DNA of 64,000 nt, from NCBI RefSeq assembly GCF_003334815.1, contig NZ_QOWO01000016.1. One strand, given 5' to 3'. The notes under the pieces are model-generated. The model saw nothing but the letters and a program-made list of their open reading frames with translations, did not search any database and was not told the DNA's origin. A program made the translations under genes and the position numbers. Below are positions 15,687 to 53,224 of this stretch, in pieces (the first letter of the stretch is position 1; each line of letters begins with the position of its first letter). The DNA comes from Escherichia coli. Lineage in GTDB: Bacteria > Pseudomonadota > Gammaproteobacteria > Enterobacterales > Enterobacteriaceae.

Positions 15687-16367
15687 ATGCATCGTATAGA
15701 CACGAAAACCGCGCAGAAGGATAAGTTCGGCGCGGGTAAGAACGGTTTTACCCGTGGTAACCCCCAGACTGGCACGCCTGCCACCGATCTGGATGATGAC
15801 TACTTTGATATGTTGCAGGAAGAACTCTGCAGCGTGGTGGAGGCATCCGGTGCCAGCCTGGAGAAGGCGCGGCACGACCAGTTGCTTACCGCGCTTCGTG
15901 CGCTGCTGTTAAGCCGCAAGAATCCGTTTGGCGATATCAAATCGGATGGCACGGTGAAAACGGCTCTCGAAAACCTTGGTTTGGGAGAAGCGGCAACGAG
16001 GAACGTCGGAACGGATACCGGGCAAGTACCAGATATGAGTAGTTTTACAACGGGGTACTCTGGAGCAGCAGACTGGCCGAATAGTAAATCTGGATGGAGT
16101 AAGGGGCCGGATGGGGTAATTACACAATGGGGTATTTTCGGTTTCCCCGTTGGACAGACAGGGACGAATGTTGTTTTCCCGCTACCTTTCCCCGCGCGGG
16201 TCGAATCAATTACACTGACAATGGCAGATATCCAGGAGTCTCTGCTTTCTCCAGCAACCATGCCTGCTTATGGAGTTAACTCAACTGGTACTTCAAGAAC
16301 GGGTTTTACAGCCCGTATGTCAGGCGCCGGTGGGTTTAATCTTTGCTATATAGCGAAAGGGAGATAA
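15687..16367 (+). CDS. tail fibre protein (constant N-terminal part + currently expressed variable C-terminal part)
   Basis: N-terminus [26 protein letters not shown]... is a conserved side-tail-fibre N-terminus; recombination site lies inside the gene at 15970..15990. Confidence 0.75.
15970..15990 (+). repeat. gix/hix-like inversion crossover site (left), AAACC-TT-GGTTT core
   Basis: 21-bp sequence whose 20 of 21 positions recur as an inverted repeat at 17856..17876; lies inside the tail fibre ORF at codons for LGLGE. Confidence 0.6.
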
Positions 16368-16371
16368 CAGA

Positions 16372-16815
16372 ATGAATAAAGTTAAAAGTGTTTACAGCCC
16401 GTCCGAAAATGCAATCTACAACGCAGCGCTATATGAAAGTTATATCAAGGAGGGGACATGGCCGCAGGATGGTATTGAAATCAGCGATGAGGATGCTGTC
16501 AGATTTAATGGGGGAAATAAGCCAACAGGAAAAATGCTGGGAATGGTTTCAGGGACCCTTGCATGGGTTGATGAGCCGCCGCTTTCACCAGAACAGAAAA
16601 TATCAGATGCAGAAAACATGAAAGCCACATTTCGTGCAAAAGCTGACAGTGAAATATCCTGGCGTCAGGATGCTGTTGATGCTGGTATCGCAACTGATGA
16701 AGAAACTTCAACTCTCACCCAATGGAAGAAATACCGTGTGCTGCTGATGCGTGTTGATACTTCAACAGCACCCGATATTGAATGGCCTACGCCTCCGGCA
16801 GTCCAGGCCAGATGA
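16372..16815 (+). CDS. tail fibre assembly protein (orientation currently expressed)
   Basis: 147-aa ORF right after tail fibre; C-terminal WPTPP motif shared with the opposite-strand paralogue (WPGLP). Confidence 0.8.
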   Translation: MNKVKSVYSPSENAIYNAALYESYIKEGTWPQDGIEISDEDAVRFNGGNKPTGKMLGMVSGTLAWVDEPPLSPEQKISDAENMKATFRAKADSEISWRQDAVDAGIATDEETSTLTQWKKYRVLLMRVDTSTAPDIEWPTPPAVQAR

Positions 16816-17389
16816 CGTCCGGCGCTGTGCTGGTATCTGTTGCCGTCACCGCGTCAATGTAATCCAGCACGGCGTTAAGTCGGGTTGTTTCTGCCGGCGT
16901 CAACTTCCGTCCGGCCTGTAATTTCAACTGAATCAGACTGATGGAAGCCATTGCAGCATCAATCAGATACTGGCGCTGTGCTTCTGCCGCTTCTACTGCG
17001 GCGCTATGCTGTGCCTCAGTATCCGTCACCCATTTCTCACCATCCCATTTATCGTATGGCGTTAATGGGGCGATAGTGGTTGTATTATCAGGGTAATCAC
17101 CCGGAGCTGTGATTTCTTTGGCGTCTCCCGTTTCGGTGCTATAGACAATTTCACCACGATGGTCTGACACATATTCCCATGATTTTAAATCCATAGAACG
17201 GCAGATAGCATAACCCGCCTTATATGTGCCAGGTTCATCCAGACAGGAATATGCAGGGATACCGACACCAATGGCAAGATATTCATTTGAAGTAGAAATA
17301 TATTCCCGAGTTTTACCATCATAGTTATAGACGGTAATATTCCCCGCCTTCGTGGCAATAAGCTCGCTATTTAATACGGCGTTATCCAT
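16787..17389 (-). CDS. tail fibre assembly protein (alternative, inverted orientation)
   Basis: 200-aa ORF on opposite strand inside the invertible segment, convergent with the + strand assembly gene. Confidence 0.8.
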   Translation of the reverse strand: MDNAVLNSELIATKAGNITVYNYDGKTREYISTSNEYLAIGVGIPAYSCLDEPGTYKAGYAICRSMDLKSWEYVSDHRGEIVYSTETGDAKEITAPGDYPDNTTTIAPLTPYDKWDGEKWVTDTEAQHSAAVEAAEAQRQYLIDAAMASISLIQLKLQAGRKLTPAETTRLNAVLDYIDAVTATDTSTAPDVIWPGLPEA

Positions 17390-17870
17390 TATGCAGCCCT
17401 CACGATATAGTTAAATGCAATATTTCGTGGACGGGTTTCACTCCCGCCAGTATTACCGATACTCCCTCGTGAATGAAGTGTCGGTGATGGGATCAGACTC
17501 CCTCCTGTATTTGTGGCATCAAGTCCCCGTCCTTGTGTGTATGTCTTTTTGAAAATCGTAGCCAGTTCCCATTCATCTTTTGTGTCGTAACCATCATTGG
17601 CAACAACAATATGGCGGTGTTTTTCCAGCATCCCTGTCTGAATGCTCAATAAAACACGTCCTGCATCAATACCGCGCCCGTCATCCCAGCCACGAATAAA
17701 CTCACCACGTAAATCAGGCAATTTATTTGTCGGATAAGCCTTTGCCAGTTCCGGGTATTCTTCAGCAGAAAAAGCCGCACCGTTGCATTTCAGCCAGCCT
17801 GTTGGCGGTGTGGCTGAAGGCCATGGAACAGGCACACCAACAGGTAATGCAGAGCCTTCTCCCAAACCAA
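17389..17870 (-). CDS. alternative tail fibre variable C-terminal segment (promoterless; expressed after inversion)
   Basis: minus-strand ORF reading from the right crossover site; translation contains VGLGE at the junction matching LGLGE of the + strand fibre. Confidence 0.7.
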
Positions 17871-17876
17871 CGTTTA
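17856..17876 (-). repeat. gix/hix-like inversion crossover site (right)
   Basis: reverse complement carries TTGGTTTGGGAGAAG, identical to 15976..15990. Confidence 0.6.
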
Positions 17877-17936
17877 TGAAAATGCAGAAATAACGAGCAA
17901 ATGGCATCATTCCTGCTTTTGTCAGGGAGATCTACT

Positions 17937-18491
17937 ATGCTTATTGGCTATGTACGTGTGTCAACAAATGACCAGAACACAGATCTACAACGTAATGCGC
18001 TGAACTGTGCAGGATGCGAGCTGATTTTTGAAGACAAGATAAGCGGTACAAAGTCCGAAAGGCCGGGACTGAAAAAACTGCTCAGGACATTATCGGCAGG
18101 TGACACTCTGGTTGTCTGGAAGCTGGATCGGCTGGGGCGTAGTATGCGGCATCTGGTCATTCTGGTTGAGGAGTTGCGCGAACGTGGCGTTAATTTTCGC
18201 AGCCTGACGGATGCTATTGATACCAGCACACCGATGGGGCGTTTTTTCTTTCATGTGATGGGTGCCCTGGCTGAAATGGAACGAGAACTGATTGTTGAAC
18301 GAACAAAAGCTGGACTGGAAGCTGCTCGCGCACAGGGACGAATTGGGGGACGTCGTCCCAAACTTACACCAGAACAATGGGCGCAGGCCGGGCGATTAAT
18401 TGCATCAGGCGTTCCTCGCCAGAAGGTGGCGATCATCTATGATGTTGGTGTATCGACACTGTATAAGAAGTTTCCGGTCGGAGATAAATGA
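17937..18491 (+). CDS. DNA invertase, serine recombinase of Gin/Pin/Hin family
   Basis: 184 aa starting MLIGYVRVSTNDQ (catalytic Ser motif); GGGAG RBS; C-terminal HTH; adjacent to invertible segment. Confidence 0.9.
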   Translation: MLIGYVRVSTNDQNTDLQRNALNCAGCELIFEDKISGTKSERPGLKKLLRTLSAGDTLVVWKLDRLGRSMRHLVILVEELRERGVNFRSLTDAIDTSTPMGRFFFHVMGALAEMERELIVERTKAGLEAARAQGRIGGRRPKLTPEQWAQAGRLIASGVPRQKVAIIYDVGVSTLYKKFPVGDK

Positions 18492-18849: not shown

Positions 18850-19104
18850 ATGGGTAAGATTATTCGGTGGATGCTTTTTTTTGTCGGATTATTTTCCGTT
18901 GCATATTCAATATATAAATATCAACAATCTCCGCAGAGTTTATTTTACATAATCGGTGCTATAGGAACACTTTTATCTGCTACATGTGGTTTACTTGAGA
19001 TAAAAAGCAAGAAATCGAATGGCAGTATAACTGCTGGCGACAACTCAAATATCGTTGTCATTAATGGTTCAGAAAACACATCAAAAATAAAAAATAGAGG
19101 GTGA
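18850..19104 (+). CDS. small two-helix membrane protein (84 aa), unknown family - cassette 1 gene A
   Basis: ATG with AGAGG RBS ~7 nt upstream; two hydrophobic helices (res ~5-22, ~31-50) then polar tail containing GDNSNIVVINGSENT; hand-counted GC ~30-35%. Confidence 0.6.
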   Translation: MGKIIRWMLFFVGLFSVAYSIYKYQQSPQSLFYIIGAIGTLLSATCGLLEIKSKKSNGSITAGDNSNIVVINGSENTSKIKNRG

Positions 19105-19106
19105 TT

Positions 19107-20042
19107 ATGTTTGATAAAGAGGTTAACTTAGGAGACAACTCAAACGTAGTAAAAACAGAAGGGAATAACAACACAACAATAATAAATAATTTTGATGAGA
19201 AGTTTATAGGTCACGTTGTAAGATCCATGCTTTATGAAAGTATGCCTTCCTTTCAAGAAGAAGCTAGAAAAAAGATAATTGCGTCAACTGATGAATACAT
19301 TAGAGAGCTAATATCTGAGTTAGTAATTCAAAAAACAGATGCAGATACATTAAACCAAAAACTATCAACGCCTGACGTTCAATACTCTCTTTTTGAATCA
19401 GCTAAATGTTTTGCAAAAAATCCAGAAAGAACAGCAAAATCAACTCTGTTAAATTTAGTTGTAAAAAAAATAAATGAATTGGATGGAGATCATGAAGAGC
19501 TTTCCTCTATCGATCTGGCAATAAACGTCGCTACAAAACTTAGCGTAAAGCAAATAAGGTATATATCTTTAATATACTATATTAAAGATATTGTAAAAAT
19601 ATCACAAGATAGTGCCGGCGCTTATTGCATAATAGATCCTTCAAAAGATACAACAGAAGAAGTTGACGATTTCTTTTTATTCCCAAATGATATAAAAAGG
19701 AACAAGCAGGATGTTTATGATCTTTATATCGATCTATATAACAATCAAATGGATGTTGTATTTAAAGATGAAGAGATTGGCCCAGTTGATTATAGTATGC
19801 TTATAGCATTGGGTTGTATCATTCAACCTGCATTCCCTCAGCGAACATTTGTACAAAATGTAAAGAAAAGAACAGGATTAGATTTAAACGACAGCGAACA
19901 AAAATTAAAGCTATCGACATTCATTGAGAAAATAGAAAAAGCTATAGAGATAGATTCTGTCGATTATATAGTATTAACTACGGTTGGTAGACAAATAGCT
20001 AACGCCTATATATCAACAAGAATGAGATTAGTTAACTTATAA
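19107..20042 (+). CDS. 312-aa soluble protein of unknown family - cassette 1 gene B
   Basis: ATG at 19107 with AGAGGG 6 nt upstream, 2 nt after gene A stop (ORF track start 19101 is an upstream GTG); N-terminus contains GDNSNVVKTEGNNNT; hand-counted GC ~27%; followed by hairpin terminator. Confidence 0.65.
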   Translation: MFDKEVNLGDNSNVVKTEGNNNTTIINNFDEKFIGHVVRSMLYESMPSFQEEARKKIIASTDEYIRELISELVIQKTDADTLNQKLSTPDVQYSLFESAKCFAKNPERTAKSTLLNLVVKKINELDGDHEELSSIDLAINVATKLSVKQIRYISLIYYIKDIVKISQDSAGAYCIIDPSKDTTEEVDDFFLFPNDIKRNKQDVYDLYIDLYNNQMDVVFKDEEIGPVDYSMLIALGCIIQPAFPQRTFVQNVKKRTGLDLNDSEQKLKLSTFIEKIEKAIEIDSVDYIVLTTVGRQIANAYISTRMRLVNL

Positions 20043-20103: not shown

Positions 20104-20240
20104 TTAAGAGTAGTGAACAAACCACTCGTCAGCAAACTCCCAAGTATCTTTCAGAGTCTCCTGAACAAAAGCCTTAGCAGAATCCTTATCTGCGGTGTAC
20201 GTAACAGGAAAATCATCGCTATGGTAGCTTTGACGCTCAC
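20104..20240 (-). pseudogene. truncated dinI-like remnant (3' portion only)
   Basis: nucleotide similarity to the 3' end of the intact dinI-like gene at 21881..22129 (GTGAACAAACCACTCGTCAGCA.ACTCCCA.GTATCTTTCAGAG...); no N-terminal part or start codon. Confidence 0.6.
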
Positions 20241-20366
20241 CCCCATACCATAAAATATCAAGAGATTACGACTCATTTCCCCATGACTCTTCACCAACCA
20301 ACAGTTCTATCAACATAAGATGTAAACTCATAAACTAAGCAAGATAAAAAAATTAACAGAATTTTG

Positions 20367-20395
20367 TTGATTTCATGTCTGTGGAGTGTTAACTT
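20367..20395 (+). promoter_or_regulatory. candidate sigma70 promoter for the XRE/ImmA operon
   Basis: TTGATT-17 nt-TAACTT about 50 nt upstream of the XRE start. Confidence 0.3.
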
Positions 20396-20445
20396 AAAAT
20401 GAGACCTGAAGTACTGAAGGTCTTTGACACACTGGAGAAGCAACT

Positions 20446-20805
20446 ATGTTAACGCCGTTTGGTAAGACAGTAAGAAAAATGCGCATAGACTTGGGGCTTA
20501 CGCTTAAAAGCATGGCTGAGGCTATGGGCATGACCTCGTCTTATCTTTCAGCGATCGAAACTGGTAAAAGGGCGGTCACTAAGCCCGTGCTTGATAGCAT
20601 CATTAGCTATTTTAATGCGGATGAAAAACAAAAAGAAAAGCTTATCAGTGCAGCTCGTGACTCTCAGCAGTCAGTAGAGATCAGCTTGTCAGGTAAGAAT
20701 GGCCACGCTCGTGAAGTCGCAATTGCGTTCGCTCGTAGTTTTGATGAATTAAATGAAGAAGACTTCCGTAATTTACGACAGATTTTGAATCGAAAACAGC
20801 AGTAG
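20446..20805 (+). CDS. XRE-family helix-turn-helix transcriptional regulator
   Basis: 119 aa; N-terminal HTH region (LGLTLKSMAEAMGMTSSYLSAIETGKR) typical of XRE/Cro-C1 repressors. Confidence 0.8.
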   Translation: MLTPFGKTVRKMRIDLGLTLKSMAEAMGMTSSYLSAIETGKRAVTKPVLDSIISYFNADEKQKEKLISAARDSQQSVEISLSGKNGHAREVAIAFARSFDELNEEDFRNLRQILNRKQQ

Positions 20806-20813
20806 GAGGCGGC

Positions 20814-21335
20814 TTGAGCGGACAAGATTATCGTGTACCTCCGCAGAATCGTGAATCAATACGTTCTATCGTCACATCTCTGCGGAGCGCATTTGGTATT
20901 ACTGGGCTTAAATTCCCTGTAATGGAGGTAATTGAGTTCGCATTGCCTCAGTTGATCCCGGATTTTGAGTTCCACATTGGTGGCATGAAAGAAATGGGAG
21001 AAACGCATGGTCTTACGTACCCACAGGAACATTTATTGATTCTGCGCGAAGACATTTACGAAGGCGCTTTGAATGGGGTAGGGCGAGATAGGATGACTGC
21101 CGCGCATGAATTGGGTCATCTTCTTATGCACAGGAACATCGCATTTGCTCGTTCTGCCCCAGGGGTAAAAATCCGCCCTTTTGAGAGTAGTGAATGGCAA
21201 GCTAAATGTTTTAGTGGTGAGTTATTAGTGCCGGCTATGCATGTCAGTATTTTAAAAGGTATGACGGCTGAGGATGTTGCTAAGGCATGCGGAGTTTCAT
21301 TAGTGGCAGCGCGTTATCAGCTAGACAGAATGTAA
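20814..21335 (+). CDS. ImmA/IrrE-family zinc metallopeptidase
   Basis: 173 aa; TTG start 4 nt after TAGGAGG; HEXXH motif (AAHELGHLLMH); immediately downstream of XRE gene, the classic HTH-peptidase pair. Confidence 0.8.
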   Translation: MSGQDYRVPPQNRESIRSIVTSLRSAFGITGLKFPVMEVIEFALPQLIPDFEFHIGGMKEMGETHGLTYPQEHLLILREDIYEGALNGVGRDRMTAAHELGHLLMHRNIAFARSAPGVKIRPFESSEWQAKCFSGELLVPAMHVSILKGMTAEDVAKACGVSLVAARYQLDRM

Positions 21336-21338
21336 AAA

Positions 21339-21373
21339 CCCCTTGCTTGGCGCCAACCAGTGCAAGGGGCTTT
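21339..21373 (+). terminator. stem-loop after ImmA-like gene (putative terminator)
   Basis: CCCCTTGC ... GCAAGGGG inverted repeat with large loop, then CTTT. Confidence 0.4.
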
Positions 21374-21488
21374 AGGTGATGAATCCAAGAGGCATCACCA
21401 CCGTGAACAGCTTCGATAGACAGCCTGAAATTAACACCTTCAGGGAAGATGTTCAAGGGAAAAATCTCTCTTGGTAAGGAGGTGTTTT

Positions 21489-21593
21489 ATGAATGGGTTT
21501 GAAATCAATTGCTTCAAAAGCGGCGCCCAAAGGGTTCCGTTGGGTTTTCTGCCGTTACCGCAAGGTGCGTGGGAAATCAAAAAAAGTCCTTGA
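21489..21593 (+). CDS. small ORF (34 aa) with strong ribosome-binding site, unknown function
   Basis: AAGGAGG 6 nt upstream of ATG; translation MNGFEINCFKSGAQRVPLGFLPLPQGAWEIKKSP; terminator 60 nt downstream; not in ORF track (under 60 aa). Confidence 0.35.
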   Translation: MNGFEINCFKSGAQRVPLGFLPLPQGAWEIKKSP

Positions 21594-21654
21594 TGCTCAT
21601 GATTACGGGTACGAGGCGTGGGCATTTTTAGTGCGCTGCTAAGGGTTAGTATTT

Positions 21655-21680
21655 AAGGCACCTGCGGGTGCCTTTTTTGT
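21655..21680 (+). terminator. rho-independent terminator
   Basis: GGCACC-TGCG-GGTGCC hairpin followed by TTTTTT. Confidence 0.65.
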
Positions 21681-21774
21681 ATCCTCTGACCCGATTGGTG
21701 TCTTGCTGAGCCTGATAACTACCAATTTTTGTTATTACTATTCTACTATCGCTCAATCATGATTGGCGGGAGTT

Positions 21775-21880: not shown

Positions 21881-22129
21881 TTAGTGAACAAACCACTCGT
21901 CAGCAGACTCCCAGGTATCTTTCAGAGTTTCCTGAACAAAAGTTTTAGCTGAATCTTTATCGGCGGTGCGCGTAACAGAAAGGCCATCGTTGCTGGTGGC
22001 TTTTACGATCACCTCTACATCGTCATAACGCTTACTGATGCGTCGAGTTAATTCTTCCTTTAACGCATCCACAGCACCGTTTGGCATTTTAGTCATTTTC
22101 TCTTTAGCTATGCAGATCTCAATACGCAT
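21881..22129 (-). CDS. DinI-family protein (prophage-encoded)
   Basis: 82 aa [11 protein letters not shown]...[11 protein letters not shown], resembles DinI; two LexA boxes in its upstream region. Confidence 0.85.
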
Positions 22130-52507: not shown

Positions 52508-53224
52508 TTAATCTTCCAGATCACCGCAGAAGCGATAACCTTCACCGTGGATGGTGGCGATGATTTCCGGCGTATCCGGCGTAGATTCGAAATGTTTACG
52601 AATACGGCGGATCGTCACGTCTACAGTACGGTCGTGTGGTTTCAGCTCACGGCCGGTCATTTTCTTCAGCAGTTCAGCACGGGACTGAATTTTGCCTGGG
52701 TTTTCACAGAAGTGAAGCATGGCGCGGAACTCGCTGCGCGGCAGCTTGTACTGCTCGCCATCAGGGCCGATCAACGAACGGCTGTTGATGTCCAGTTCCC
52801 AACCATTGAACTTGTAGCTTTCAACGCTACGACGTTCTTCGCTGACAGTACCCAGATTCATGGTACGGGACAGCAGGTTGCGTGCACGAATCGTCAGTTC
52901 ACGCGGGTTGAACGGTTTGGTGATGTAGTCATCTGCACCGATTTCGAGGCCGAGAATTTTATCGACTTCGTTGTCACGGCCAGTCAGGAACATCAACGCA
53001 ACATTCGCCTGCTCGCGCAGTTCACGCGCTAACAGAAGACCGTTCTTACCCGGCAGATTGATATCCATGATCACCAGGTTGATGTCATATTCAGAGAGGA
53101 TCTGATGCATTTCCGCGCCATCTGTCGCTTCGAAAACATCATAGCCTTCCGCTTCGAAAATACTTTTCAACGTGTTGCGTGTTACCAACTCGTCTTCAAC
53201 GATAAGAATGTGCGGGGTCTGCAT
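52508..53224 (-). CDS. arcA: aerobic respiration control response regulator ArcA
   Basis: 238 aa [30 protein letters not shown]... Confidence 0.97.

Follow-up and report, generated by a model that had tools for sequence, protein, structure and literature searches.

Few two-gene modules of mobile elements are as common as pairs of an XRE-family repressor and an M78 metallopeptidase (XRE/M78 pairs), whose outputs and triggers are known for a few models: ImmR/ImmA, DdrO/IrrE, CapH/CapP and Rosmer. What, then, does such a pair control when its own operon offers no obvious target? We took up this question at positions 20446-21335 of a 64,000-nucleotide (nt) stretch of Escherichia coli contig NZ_QOWO01000016.1 (assembly GCF_003334815.1; hereafter the window). 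A reading of the bare sequence (the sequence-only reading) had recognised an XRE repressor/ImmA-IrrE peptidase pair of a mobile element there, and had suggested that it might regulate an upstream gene pair (cassette 1) or a downstream 34-amino-acid (aa) open reading frame, or might be an orphan switch. We find that the pair is the front part of an autonomous, widely conserved three-gene accessory cassette (a moron) that moves as a unit among unrelated prophages and satellites. The repressor/peptidase assignment was borne out; the picture of an orphan without a target was not, since a conserved third gene and a conserved leader follow the peptidase in nearly all relatives.

The cassette measures 1.4 kilobases (kb; about 20276-21680), with limits set by alignment to an 89%-identical copy (locus L003) that adjoins an integrase at yejO. 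Homology to this copy begins ~170 nt 5′ of the XRE gene and stops at the intrinsic terminator at 21655-21680. The layout runs from a promoter/operator through the XRE repressor, the M78 peptidase, a structured leader and the gene for a 49-aa basic protein to the terminator:

20351-20371, no strand assigned: candidate XRE operator, palindrome A-TTAACA-GAATTT-TGTTGA-T, overlapping the -35 element
20368-20395, plus strand: putative sigma-70 promoter, with -35 TTGATT (20368-20373), a 16-nt spacer and TG-extended -10 TAACTT (20390-20395)
20402-20423, plus strand: hairpin of the 5′ untranslated region (UTR), AGACCT-N10-AGGTCT
20446-20805, plus strand: XRE-family repressor, 119 aa, N-terminal helix-turn-helix (HTH) and C-terminal domain
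20814-21335, plus strand: ImmA/IrrE-type M78 zinc peptidase, 173 aa, TTG start 8 nt past the XRE stop
21336-21492, plus strand: conserved structured leader, 157 nt, between the peptidase stop and the small gene
21493-21642, plus strand: third gene, 49-aa basic protein (12 Lys/Arg, 3 Asp/Glu), predicted all-beta
21655-21680, plus strand: intrinsic terminator closing the cassette, AAGGCACCTGCGGGTGCCTT then TTTTTG, from a terminator scan

We searched 5,426 complete E. coli genomes by megablast and found the cassette in 13, always as the whole 1.4-kb block (>=90% coverage) and always without cassette 1. Cassette 1 occurred alone in at least four complete genomes, and no record held cassette 1 and the pair together at >=80% coverage of the combined region. 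One genome (L006) carries the same e14-like prophage at the same prfC site, and there cassette 1 is followed directly by dinI, with the trio absent. The cassette takes a terminal position in the temperate phages and satellites that carry it, among them lambdoid, P2-like and e14-like prophages as well as P4-like satellites. Its neighbours include a reverse transcriptase with an IS1-disrupted SLATT gene, a GIY-YIG remnant, integrases and a P4-like satellite; further settings are the late-gene regulatory region of a lambdoid prophage, accessory regions of Burkholderia and of coliphage LLS, and Ralstonia phage records.

The order and spacing of the three genes (119 aa, 173 aa, ~157 nt, 49 aa) are the same in Klebsiella and Yersinia. 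An Aeromonas trio has a peptidase 54% identical to that of the window and a small gene that had not been called, and in coliphage LLS, Burkholderia phage vB_SBP36 and Ralstonia phages, whose peptidases are 30-36% identical, the small protein can still be recognised as a homologue. Using the peptidase alignment as query against viral contigs, we obtained 80 loci. All ~58 loci with a full-length match to the peptidase subfamily had a related XRE gene -5 to +39 nt upstream, and in ~50 of these 58 the small gene lay downstream of the peptidase, at peptidase identities down to ~27%. It was found 90-220 nt 3′ of the peptidase on the same strand, after one round of iteration of the hidden Markov model (HMM). 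Loci that matched the generic M78 core only had neither the related XRE gene nor the small gene. Searching in the reverse direction, from the small protein, we recovered an XRE-M78 pair upstream at 32 of 39 viral loci. The ratio of non-synonymous to synonymous substitution (dN/dS) was 0.05-0.08 for all three genes, which places both the XRE gene (0.07) and the peptidase gene under strong purifying selection.

In four Yersinia contigs (L011-L014) the trio lies between two integrases, and the island across the first integrase varies between isolates, with AAA_15/AAA_21 ATPase genes in some, SIR2 and a HerA-like gene or a gene with a RES domain in others. The pattern suggests mobile elements arrayed in tandem at a single attachment site, each with a different defence-like cargo.

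Both proteins of the pair are what the sequence-only reading had taken them for, at the coordinates it had given, and HMM searches confirmed their domains. Residues 5-63 of the XRE protein match Pfam HTH_31 (E 1.5e-10) and HTH_3 (E 4.3e-10), a Cro/C1-type HTH, and the PADLOC capH model matches the protein across its full length (E 3.6e-10). Its C-terminal domain contains the near-invariant motif I93-A-F95-A-R97, which is of the FAR type (Phe/Leu-Ala-Arg) in ~42 of 45 unique partners. The peptidase consists of a peptidase domain and a short C-terminal HTH-like subdomain, with the GAF domain absent. It matches Pfam Peptidase_M78 (PF06114, E 8.5e-9), the NCBIfam spr1629 repressor/antitoxin model and PADLOC capP (E 4.9e-11), the last over model positions 56-147 of 242 only. 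Its HELGH motif corresponds to H98-E99-x-x-H102, and neither H98, E99 and H102 nor E127, the third zinc ligand, varies among 24 relatives.

The sequence-only reading would have been undone by a second protein that lacked a metallopeptidase fold, and we found a confident one. The AlphaFold model of the peptidase has a pLDDT of 92.9, falling to 70 at residues 111-120, and a pTM of 0.89. The best solved Foldseek matches were CapP 7t5t (E 6.9e-5) and IrrE 3dti/3dte, with CapP and IrrE at probability 1.0; PprI and mycobacterial XRE-M78 regulators were matched as well. In these alignments the whole peptidase is covered and the targets, which carry additional residues, only in part (TMt 0.36-0.43); CapP, for comparison, has domains at residues 1-141, 142-182 and 182-288. 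On the grounds of its intact motifs and predicted fold, the peptidase appears to be catalytically competent and of the ImmA type.

The third gene had been read in a different frame. We rejected the 34-aa frame (ATG 21489) for a 49-aa frame (ATG 21493), which differs from the 89%-identical copy by 13 synonymous and 3 non-synonymous changes (dN/dS 0.05), matches phrog_33859 (E 1.5e-26), a family listed as of "unknown function", and is annotated as a coding sequence (CDS) in several RefSeq genomes. The idea that the pair regulates a small downstream gene is the option we favour; the reading frame assigned to that gene was wrong. A profile search of 1.84 billion cluster representatives returned 1,588 representatives at E<=1e-3, which gives a family of ~1,600 clusters at 50% identity, and the 150 best-scoring matches listed have lengths of 37-115 aa. 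The protein is very basic and rich in aromatic residues, like nucleic-acid binders. It had no match in Pfam, NCBIfam or PADLOC (no RmrT model either), nothing better than E 0.07 among PDB sequences, and no PDB fold match for its model (pLDDT 89).

An M78 gene is absent at a fifth of the viral small-gene loci. Solo small genes lie opposite a 74-aa HTH gene beside a serine recombinase, before ParA, between terminase and portal, and after lysozyme (L100 3001-3132, L103 571-762, L111 2980-3162 and L125 2851-3117). At L125 the leader of a trio-type relative is kept and the two upstream genes are lost.

We read the cassette promoter from the sequence by eye, and it is putative; an automatic scan at its own threshold gave no call. 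The positions of its -35 and -10 elements are conserved across relatives, in which the -10 reads TAACTT, TATCTT, TATATT or TAATAT. The palindrome that overlaps the -35 element has the family consensus ATCAAC-N8-GTTGAT and is the sole strongly conserved block in the diverged upstream regions of seven relatives. Its arms are perfect in L003 (TCAACA/TGTTGA), and a TCAAC/GTTGA half-site recurs 5′ of the XRE gene in distant trios. Perfect 7-bp (7/7) inverted repeats were present in 18 of 45 upstream regions, compared with 4 of 45 control coding stretches. A palindrome placed over a -35 element in this way would be the signature of an autorepressed promoter. In the window it occurs at the cassette's own promoter and at 52770-52789 only, the latter inside a chromosomal gene and within chance expectation. 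A search for operator-like repeats, which had been proposed as a check, found no operator upstream of cassette 1 or in the leader. We therefore rejected regulation of cassette 1: the operator is confined to the pair's own promoter, and the two cassettes occur separately and never together.

The second inverted repeat of the upstream region, at 20402-20423, probably belongs to the RNA. Its arms vary among relatives with pairing kept (AGACCC/GGGTCT in L003, GCAAGC/GCTTGC in Klebsiella, AGAGTC/GACTCT in L025 and AGACCTG/CAGGTCT in L021), and because the pairing stays while the sequence changes, it fits a hairpin at the 5′ end of the mRNA better than an operator.

No other DNA of the cassette is as well conserved as the leader that separates the peptidase from the small gene. 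The identity of the leader to three relatives is 0.94, 0.90 and 0.83, compared with 0.87, 0.76 and 0.67 for the peptidase gene, at a synonymous divergence >1. The fold of the leader has a z-score of -3.25 and comprises these elements:

21339-21369, plus strand: H1, a terminator-like hairpin with loop TTGGCGCCAACCA
21375-21399, plus strand: H2
21405-21454 and 21424-21444, plus strand: nested helices H4 and H3
21385-21391 with 21468-21474: pairing of the H2 loop with a segment just 5′ of the ribosome-binding site
21476-21482, plus strand: Shine-Dalgarno sequence AAGGAGG

In the helices, 82.9% of cells pair, compared with 37-55% when the partners are slid, and double changes were seen in 11 pairs compared with 1-7; the test used eight sequences and a structure derived from these same sequences, and is supportive, not conclusive. 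The stem of H1 co-varies around a loop, TTGGCGCCAACCA, that hardly changes. The G-U pairs of H2 speak for a structure on the plus strand. On the minus strand H1 resembles a canonical terminator followed by T5, and the scan found no minus-strand promoter for an antisense RNA that would end at H1. The leader had no family match in Rfam at E<=1. A sigma-70 promoter of its own for the small gene was seen in only 2 of 42 leaders, and -10-like strings spotted by eye did not hold. Because the leaders show no evident promoter, we take the small gene to be co-transcribed by read-through.

Two other roles for the leader were considered and are not supported. As a second XRE operator, its AAATTAACA match in the window does not co-vary. 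As a device that occludes the ribosome-binding site, it would rely on a pairing of TAACACCTTC with AAGGAGGTGTT drawn by RNAalifold, which shows no covariation because both segments are invariant. We also observed that the H1 loop holds a perfect 10-nt palindrome, TTGGCGCCAA, which is invariant across genera while the stem co-varies, and that hairpins with a CGCCAAC loop stand at the same place in relatives with peptidases 36-41% identical (also in L027 and L058).

A resemblance between the two proteins of the pair bears on how the peptidase may be held in check. The string IAFARS is identical in the repressor (residues 93-98) and in a loop of the peptidase (residues 109-114; switch loop I109-A-F-A-R113), which is the lowest-confidence segment of the AlphaFold model. 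A Phe/Leu/Tyr/Met-Ala-Arg/Lys motif is found in this loop in 33 of 41 unique peptidases, and in some pairs the two partners change together: FAK pairs with FAK in L044, and LAR with LAR in L026 and L039. In other peptidase subfamilies the loop motif is absent in 30 of 31, and three show a CapP-like Cys there. When phmmer aligns the peptidase with CapP 7t5t, R113 is placed opposite the Cys of the CapP loop motif SFQCS, and we take this Cys to be the CapP switch cysteine; the CapP switch loop spans residues 109-122 and includes C114. No Cys lies between H102 and E127 of our peptidase, and a cysteine switch is present in many CapP proteins, though not all. Known cuts in the C-terminal dimerisation domain of the repressors fall next to Phe/Leu (ImmR F95|M96 and CapH F82|R83), and the DdrO cut lies in the loop that joins its last two helices. 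From these comparisons we infer a possible pseudosubstrate lock, in which the repressor-like loop would sit in the active site until a signal displaces it.

The reading we favour, with a confidence of about one half, is that the cassette works as a switch that represses itself, is triggered by its protease and has the small protein as output. An XRE dimer would bind the TCAAC-N-GTTGA palindrome over the -35 element, as the conserved operator suggests, and would hold the operon low. In the resting state the switch loop of the peptidase, with its repressor motif, may block the active site as a pseudosubstrate. A signal would free the loop; it might arise from DNA damage by way of RecA, as it does for ImmA, or be something that an infecting phage produces. 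Single-stranded DNA (ssDNA) in a peptidase/GAF groove cannot be the trigger, because the GAF domain is absent. The peptidase would then cut the repressor at or near F95-A96-R97 and so abolish dimerisation and DNA binding, by analogy with ImmA-ImmR, IrrE-DdrO and CapP-CapH. With the operon derepressed, transcripts would extend past the hairpin, a weak terminator-like one, and on through the leader into the small gene, whose basic product would then be made. This product would act as the effector, probably by binding nucleic acid or by interfering with growth or with a phage, for example in exclusion or abortive infection for the lysogen or prophage. The cassette is conserved and catalytically intact and bears the marks of autoregulation; the steps beyond this we infer.

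What chiefly supports this reading is how deep the three-gene linkage reaches and how constant its geometry stays, along with the conservation of the leader. Several results weigh against it. Chief among them, the small gene is also found by itself in other phages and elements, so that it does not strictly depend on the switch and may be a moron in its own right. Between the peptidase and the small gene stands a hairpin followed by T-rich sequence, and read-through past it is an assumption. No copy of the operator is present in the leader, and the substrings common to promoter and leader did not exceed those of shuffled sequences in length (47 loci). Occlusion of the ribosome-binding site is unsupported: across 27 leaders the median pairing of the Shine-Dalgarno region was 0.37, compared with 0.35 for shuffled sequences. 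The resemblance between repressor and loop amounts to three residues, and 8 of 41 peptidases are without the motif. Finally, it is by its genomic position alone that the small protein earns the label "effector", because it has no recognisable fold or family.

By analogy, the cassette may function as a member of the ImmR/ImmA, DdrO/IrrE and CapH/CapP class of protease-triggered repressor switches, and we compared it with each. It shares with ImmR/ImmA (Bacillus subtilis ICEBs1, phage phi105) a separate XRE protein and a GAF-less M78 peptidase of ~170 aa encoded by adjacent genes on a mobile element; ImmR is an autoregulating repressor inactivated by a C-terminal cut after Phe (F95|M96). Sequence similarity to ImmR/ImmA is at the family level only. 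ImmR controls its own excision and transfer genes from a divergent promoter, whereas no such genes adjoin the cassette, which is dispensable for the prophage and has the conserved small gene as its only candidate output.

CapH/CapP (Lau et al, 2022; Calloji et al, 2026) came out best in the HMM searches and in the fold comparison. CapH is likewise an HTH repressor with a C-terminal oligomerisation domain that is cut after Phe (F82|R83), and the switch loop of our peptidase appears to lie at the position of CapP's autoinhibitory loop. Unlike CapP, the peptidase has no GAF domain and hence no peptidase/GAF ssDNA groove, and an Arg within a substrate-like Phe-Ala-Arg motif replaces the switch cysteine. 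CapH/CapP lies upstream of and divergent from an immune operon; the genes of the cassette are co-directional and have their own terminator, and in place of a multi-gene immune system they have a single 49-aa protein as proposed output.

RosmerTA, RipAB and PD-lambda-2, in which HTH-M78 fusion antitoxins are matched with toxins of diverse kinds, resemble the cassette as mobile, prophage-borne XRE-plus-M78 units coupled to a small variable partner gene. The PADLOC RmrA models (357-400 positions) match only partly, the N-terminal part of the XRE protein and the central part of the peptidase; RmrA proteins are fusions of 360-400 aa, whereas HTH and peptidase are here two proteins of 119 and 173 aa. 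Unlike in RosmerTA, the partner lies downstream behind a long structured leader and is a soluble basic beta protein with no RmrT match. The three-component systems predicted by Makarova, Wolf and Koonin (2009; PMC2701414) follow the same logic: they are also mobile and patchy, and in them a protease would cleave an Xre repressor and free a third effector. Their predicted third components are RelE or PIN nucleases next to a fused Xre-COG2856; here the first two components are split and the third belongs to a new family of 40-50 aa. In DdrO/IrrE of Deinococcus an XRE repressor is likewise cut in its C-terminal dimerisation domain by an M78 peptidase (fold TMq 0.57), but IrrE has a GAF domain and binds ssDNA, and the genes are chromosomal and unlinked and control a DNA-repair regulon. 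We file the cassette as a variant apart from the named families because it lacks one or more defining features of each of CapH/CapP, ImmR/ImmA and Rosmer.

The surroundings of the cassette suggest how it came to stand next to cassette 1. From 22322 onward the window consists of the E. coli chromosomal genes prfC, osmY, ytjA, yjjU and yjjV. Upstream of prfC lies an e14-like prophage with head and tail genes, an invertible tail-fibre segment and an invertase, beyond which the order is cassette 1, a 3′ remnant of a dinI-like gene, the XRE/peptidase cassette and an intact dinI-like gene:

17901-18491: Pin-type invertase
18850-20042: cassette 1, an 84-aa predicted membrane protein and a 313-aa protein of the LPO_1073/Vpar_1526 family (NCBIfam 3.4e-24; phrog_19542, unknown function)
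20111-20241, minus strand: dinI-like 3′ remnant, 85% identical over 131 nt to the intact dinI (21882-22013), annotated as a partial DinI-like CDS in L001 and L002
21881-22129, minus strand: intact dinI-like gene

The dinI remnant marks the left junction where the trio cassette recombined in behind cassette 1. The bracketing of the trio by a truncated and an intact dinI looks like the scar of recombination between dinI copies that stacked two accessory cassettes in one prophage end. Cassette 1, for which no PADLOC match was found, may be an uncharacterised accessory or defence pair. In E. coli 510016 (L001 2101-4777, same prfC site) its slot is filled by a reverse transcriptase and an IS1-disrupted SLATT-domain gene, and we therefore regard the stretch past the tail fibres, in prophages of this type, as a hotspot at which accessory or defence cassettes are exchanged.

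Other observations in this part of the window stand on their own. At 15687-18491, alternative fibre C-termini and assembly genes on opposite strands adjoin the invertase, which is of the Pin/Gin type (phrog_125, E 1e-97), and this invertible tail-fibre region resembles the arrangement in e14, Mu and P1. Other e14-like prophages at prfC hold cassette 1 in the same post-invertase slot without the trio. Between the cassette terminator and dinI (21646-21758, minus strand) there is a sub-threshold Rfam match to the enterobacterial small RNA STnc130 (30.2 bits against a gathering score of 55, E 0.057), which is probably due to chance.

Several other explanations of the cassette were weighed. One is a two-gene toxin-antitoxin (TA) module of the Xre-COG2856 kind, in which the M78 peptidase would be the toxin, the XRE protein the antitoxin and autorepressor, and the small gene a hitch-hiking moron; we think this improbable, though worth keeping in view. 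The cassette is, like type II TA modules, a compact, autoregulated and mobile operon with a patchy distribution (13 of 5426 E. coli genomes, several insertion contexts). One study predicted that Xre and COG2856 form a mobile, TA-like pair (PMC2701414), expression of PD-lambda-2B, an Xre-peptidase fusion, is toxic by itself (PMC9519451), and PDB entry 7t5t labels its molecule "CapP toxin"; the terminator-like hairpin that parts the small gene from the pair, and the occurrence of that gene alone elsewhere, point the same way. The first of these sources nevertheless considers it most likely that a third component is controlled by the protease through cleavage of the Xre repressor, and where Rosmer and RipAB systems have been characterised, the HTH-peptidase serves as antitoxin and not as toxin. 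Moreover, order, strand and spacing of the small gene behind the peptidase are kept over deep divergence, with the most conserved DNA of the cassette lying between the two.

An equally low probability attaches to a role of the small protein as a cofactor or sensor of the peptidase, either an activator like RapI or a detachable nucleic-acid module that replaces the GAF domain; the output would then be some other cleavage or XRE repression in trans. The peptidase does lack the domain that forms the ssDNA groove in CapP and IrrE, the small protein has the very basic, aromatic-rich composition of nucleic-acid binders, and a separate small protein, RapI, can activate ImmA. A cofactor would be expected in the same translational unit as its enzyme, and the gene lies instead behind a terminator-like hairpin and a leader of 110-180 nt. 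We also found no other output gene that travels with the cassette, and a fifth of the viral small-gene loci lack any M78 gene.

Very unlikely, in our judgement, is an orphan CapH/CapP-like regulator that responds to DNA damage and controls a defence operon elsewhere, be it cassette 1 or a distant locus. CapH and CapP are indeed the best PADLOC matches, CapP is the best structural match, and candidate defence genes lie nearby in one context or another (the LPO_1073 family; reverse transcriptase plus SLATT; SIR2-HerA; AAA_15/21). These neighbours change with every context, however, and in the 5426 E. coli genomes cassette 1 and the trio never occur together. The operator stands solely at the cassette's own promoter, the gene order is co-directional and not divergent as in CapH/CapP, and both the GAF domain and the cysteine switch are absent.

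Least probable by far is the alternative that the sequence-only reading had itself raised, a lysogeny switch of the resident prophage in which an ImmR/ImmA-type repressor and anti-repressor control induction, as the ImmR/ImmA, phage phi105 and Rir/Crh pairs do for their mobile elements: the same prophage type at the same prfC site (L006) does without the cassette, which recurs in the unrelated lambdoid, P2-like and e14-like prophages and P4-like satellites, lies past the tail-fibre invertase at the distal prophage end between the dinI remnant and dinI, and adjoins no divergent early or excision genes. The distribution data thus contradict both trans regulation of cassette 1 or another operon and a role in prophage lysogeny.

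We return to the reading of an autorepressed switch with the small protein as its output. A literature search, incomplete in its coverage so that an earlier description is possible, found no description of the three-gene arrangement, its RefSeq accessions or its PHROG identifier. We regard the cassette as a fresh variation on a well-known theme: an XRE/M78 switch divided over two proteins, without a GAF domain, and joined by a conserved structured leader to a new family of small proteins. More tentatively, and as a possibility we would not yet lean on, the cassette may represent a widespread, hitherto unrecognised phage-borne class of triggers and effectors, in which a signal of infection or DNA damage would release a GAF-less M78 peptidase from a loop that mimics the cleavage site of its repressor, and would so unleash all-beta, basic, nucleic-acid-directed proteins of 40-50 residues that bring about exclusion or abortive infection, with the leader adding a second layer of control at the level of the RNA.

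For XRE/M78 pairs at large, the cassette supplies a candidate output, a large unannotated family of small proteins often missed by gene callers, and at 1.4 kb it is compact enough to clone and test directly. It also offers a hypothesis, open to mutation, for how a GAF-less peptidase may be inhibited, by a substrate-mimicking loop that changes along with the repressor motif. Should the small protein turn out to act against phages or to arrest growth, its family would be a new system among the defences that prophages encode; should it not, "orphan" XRE/ImmA pairs would still be worth checking for uncalled small genes downstream.

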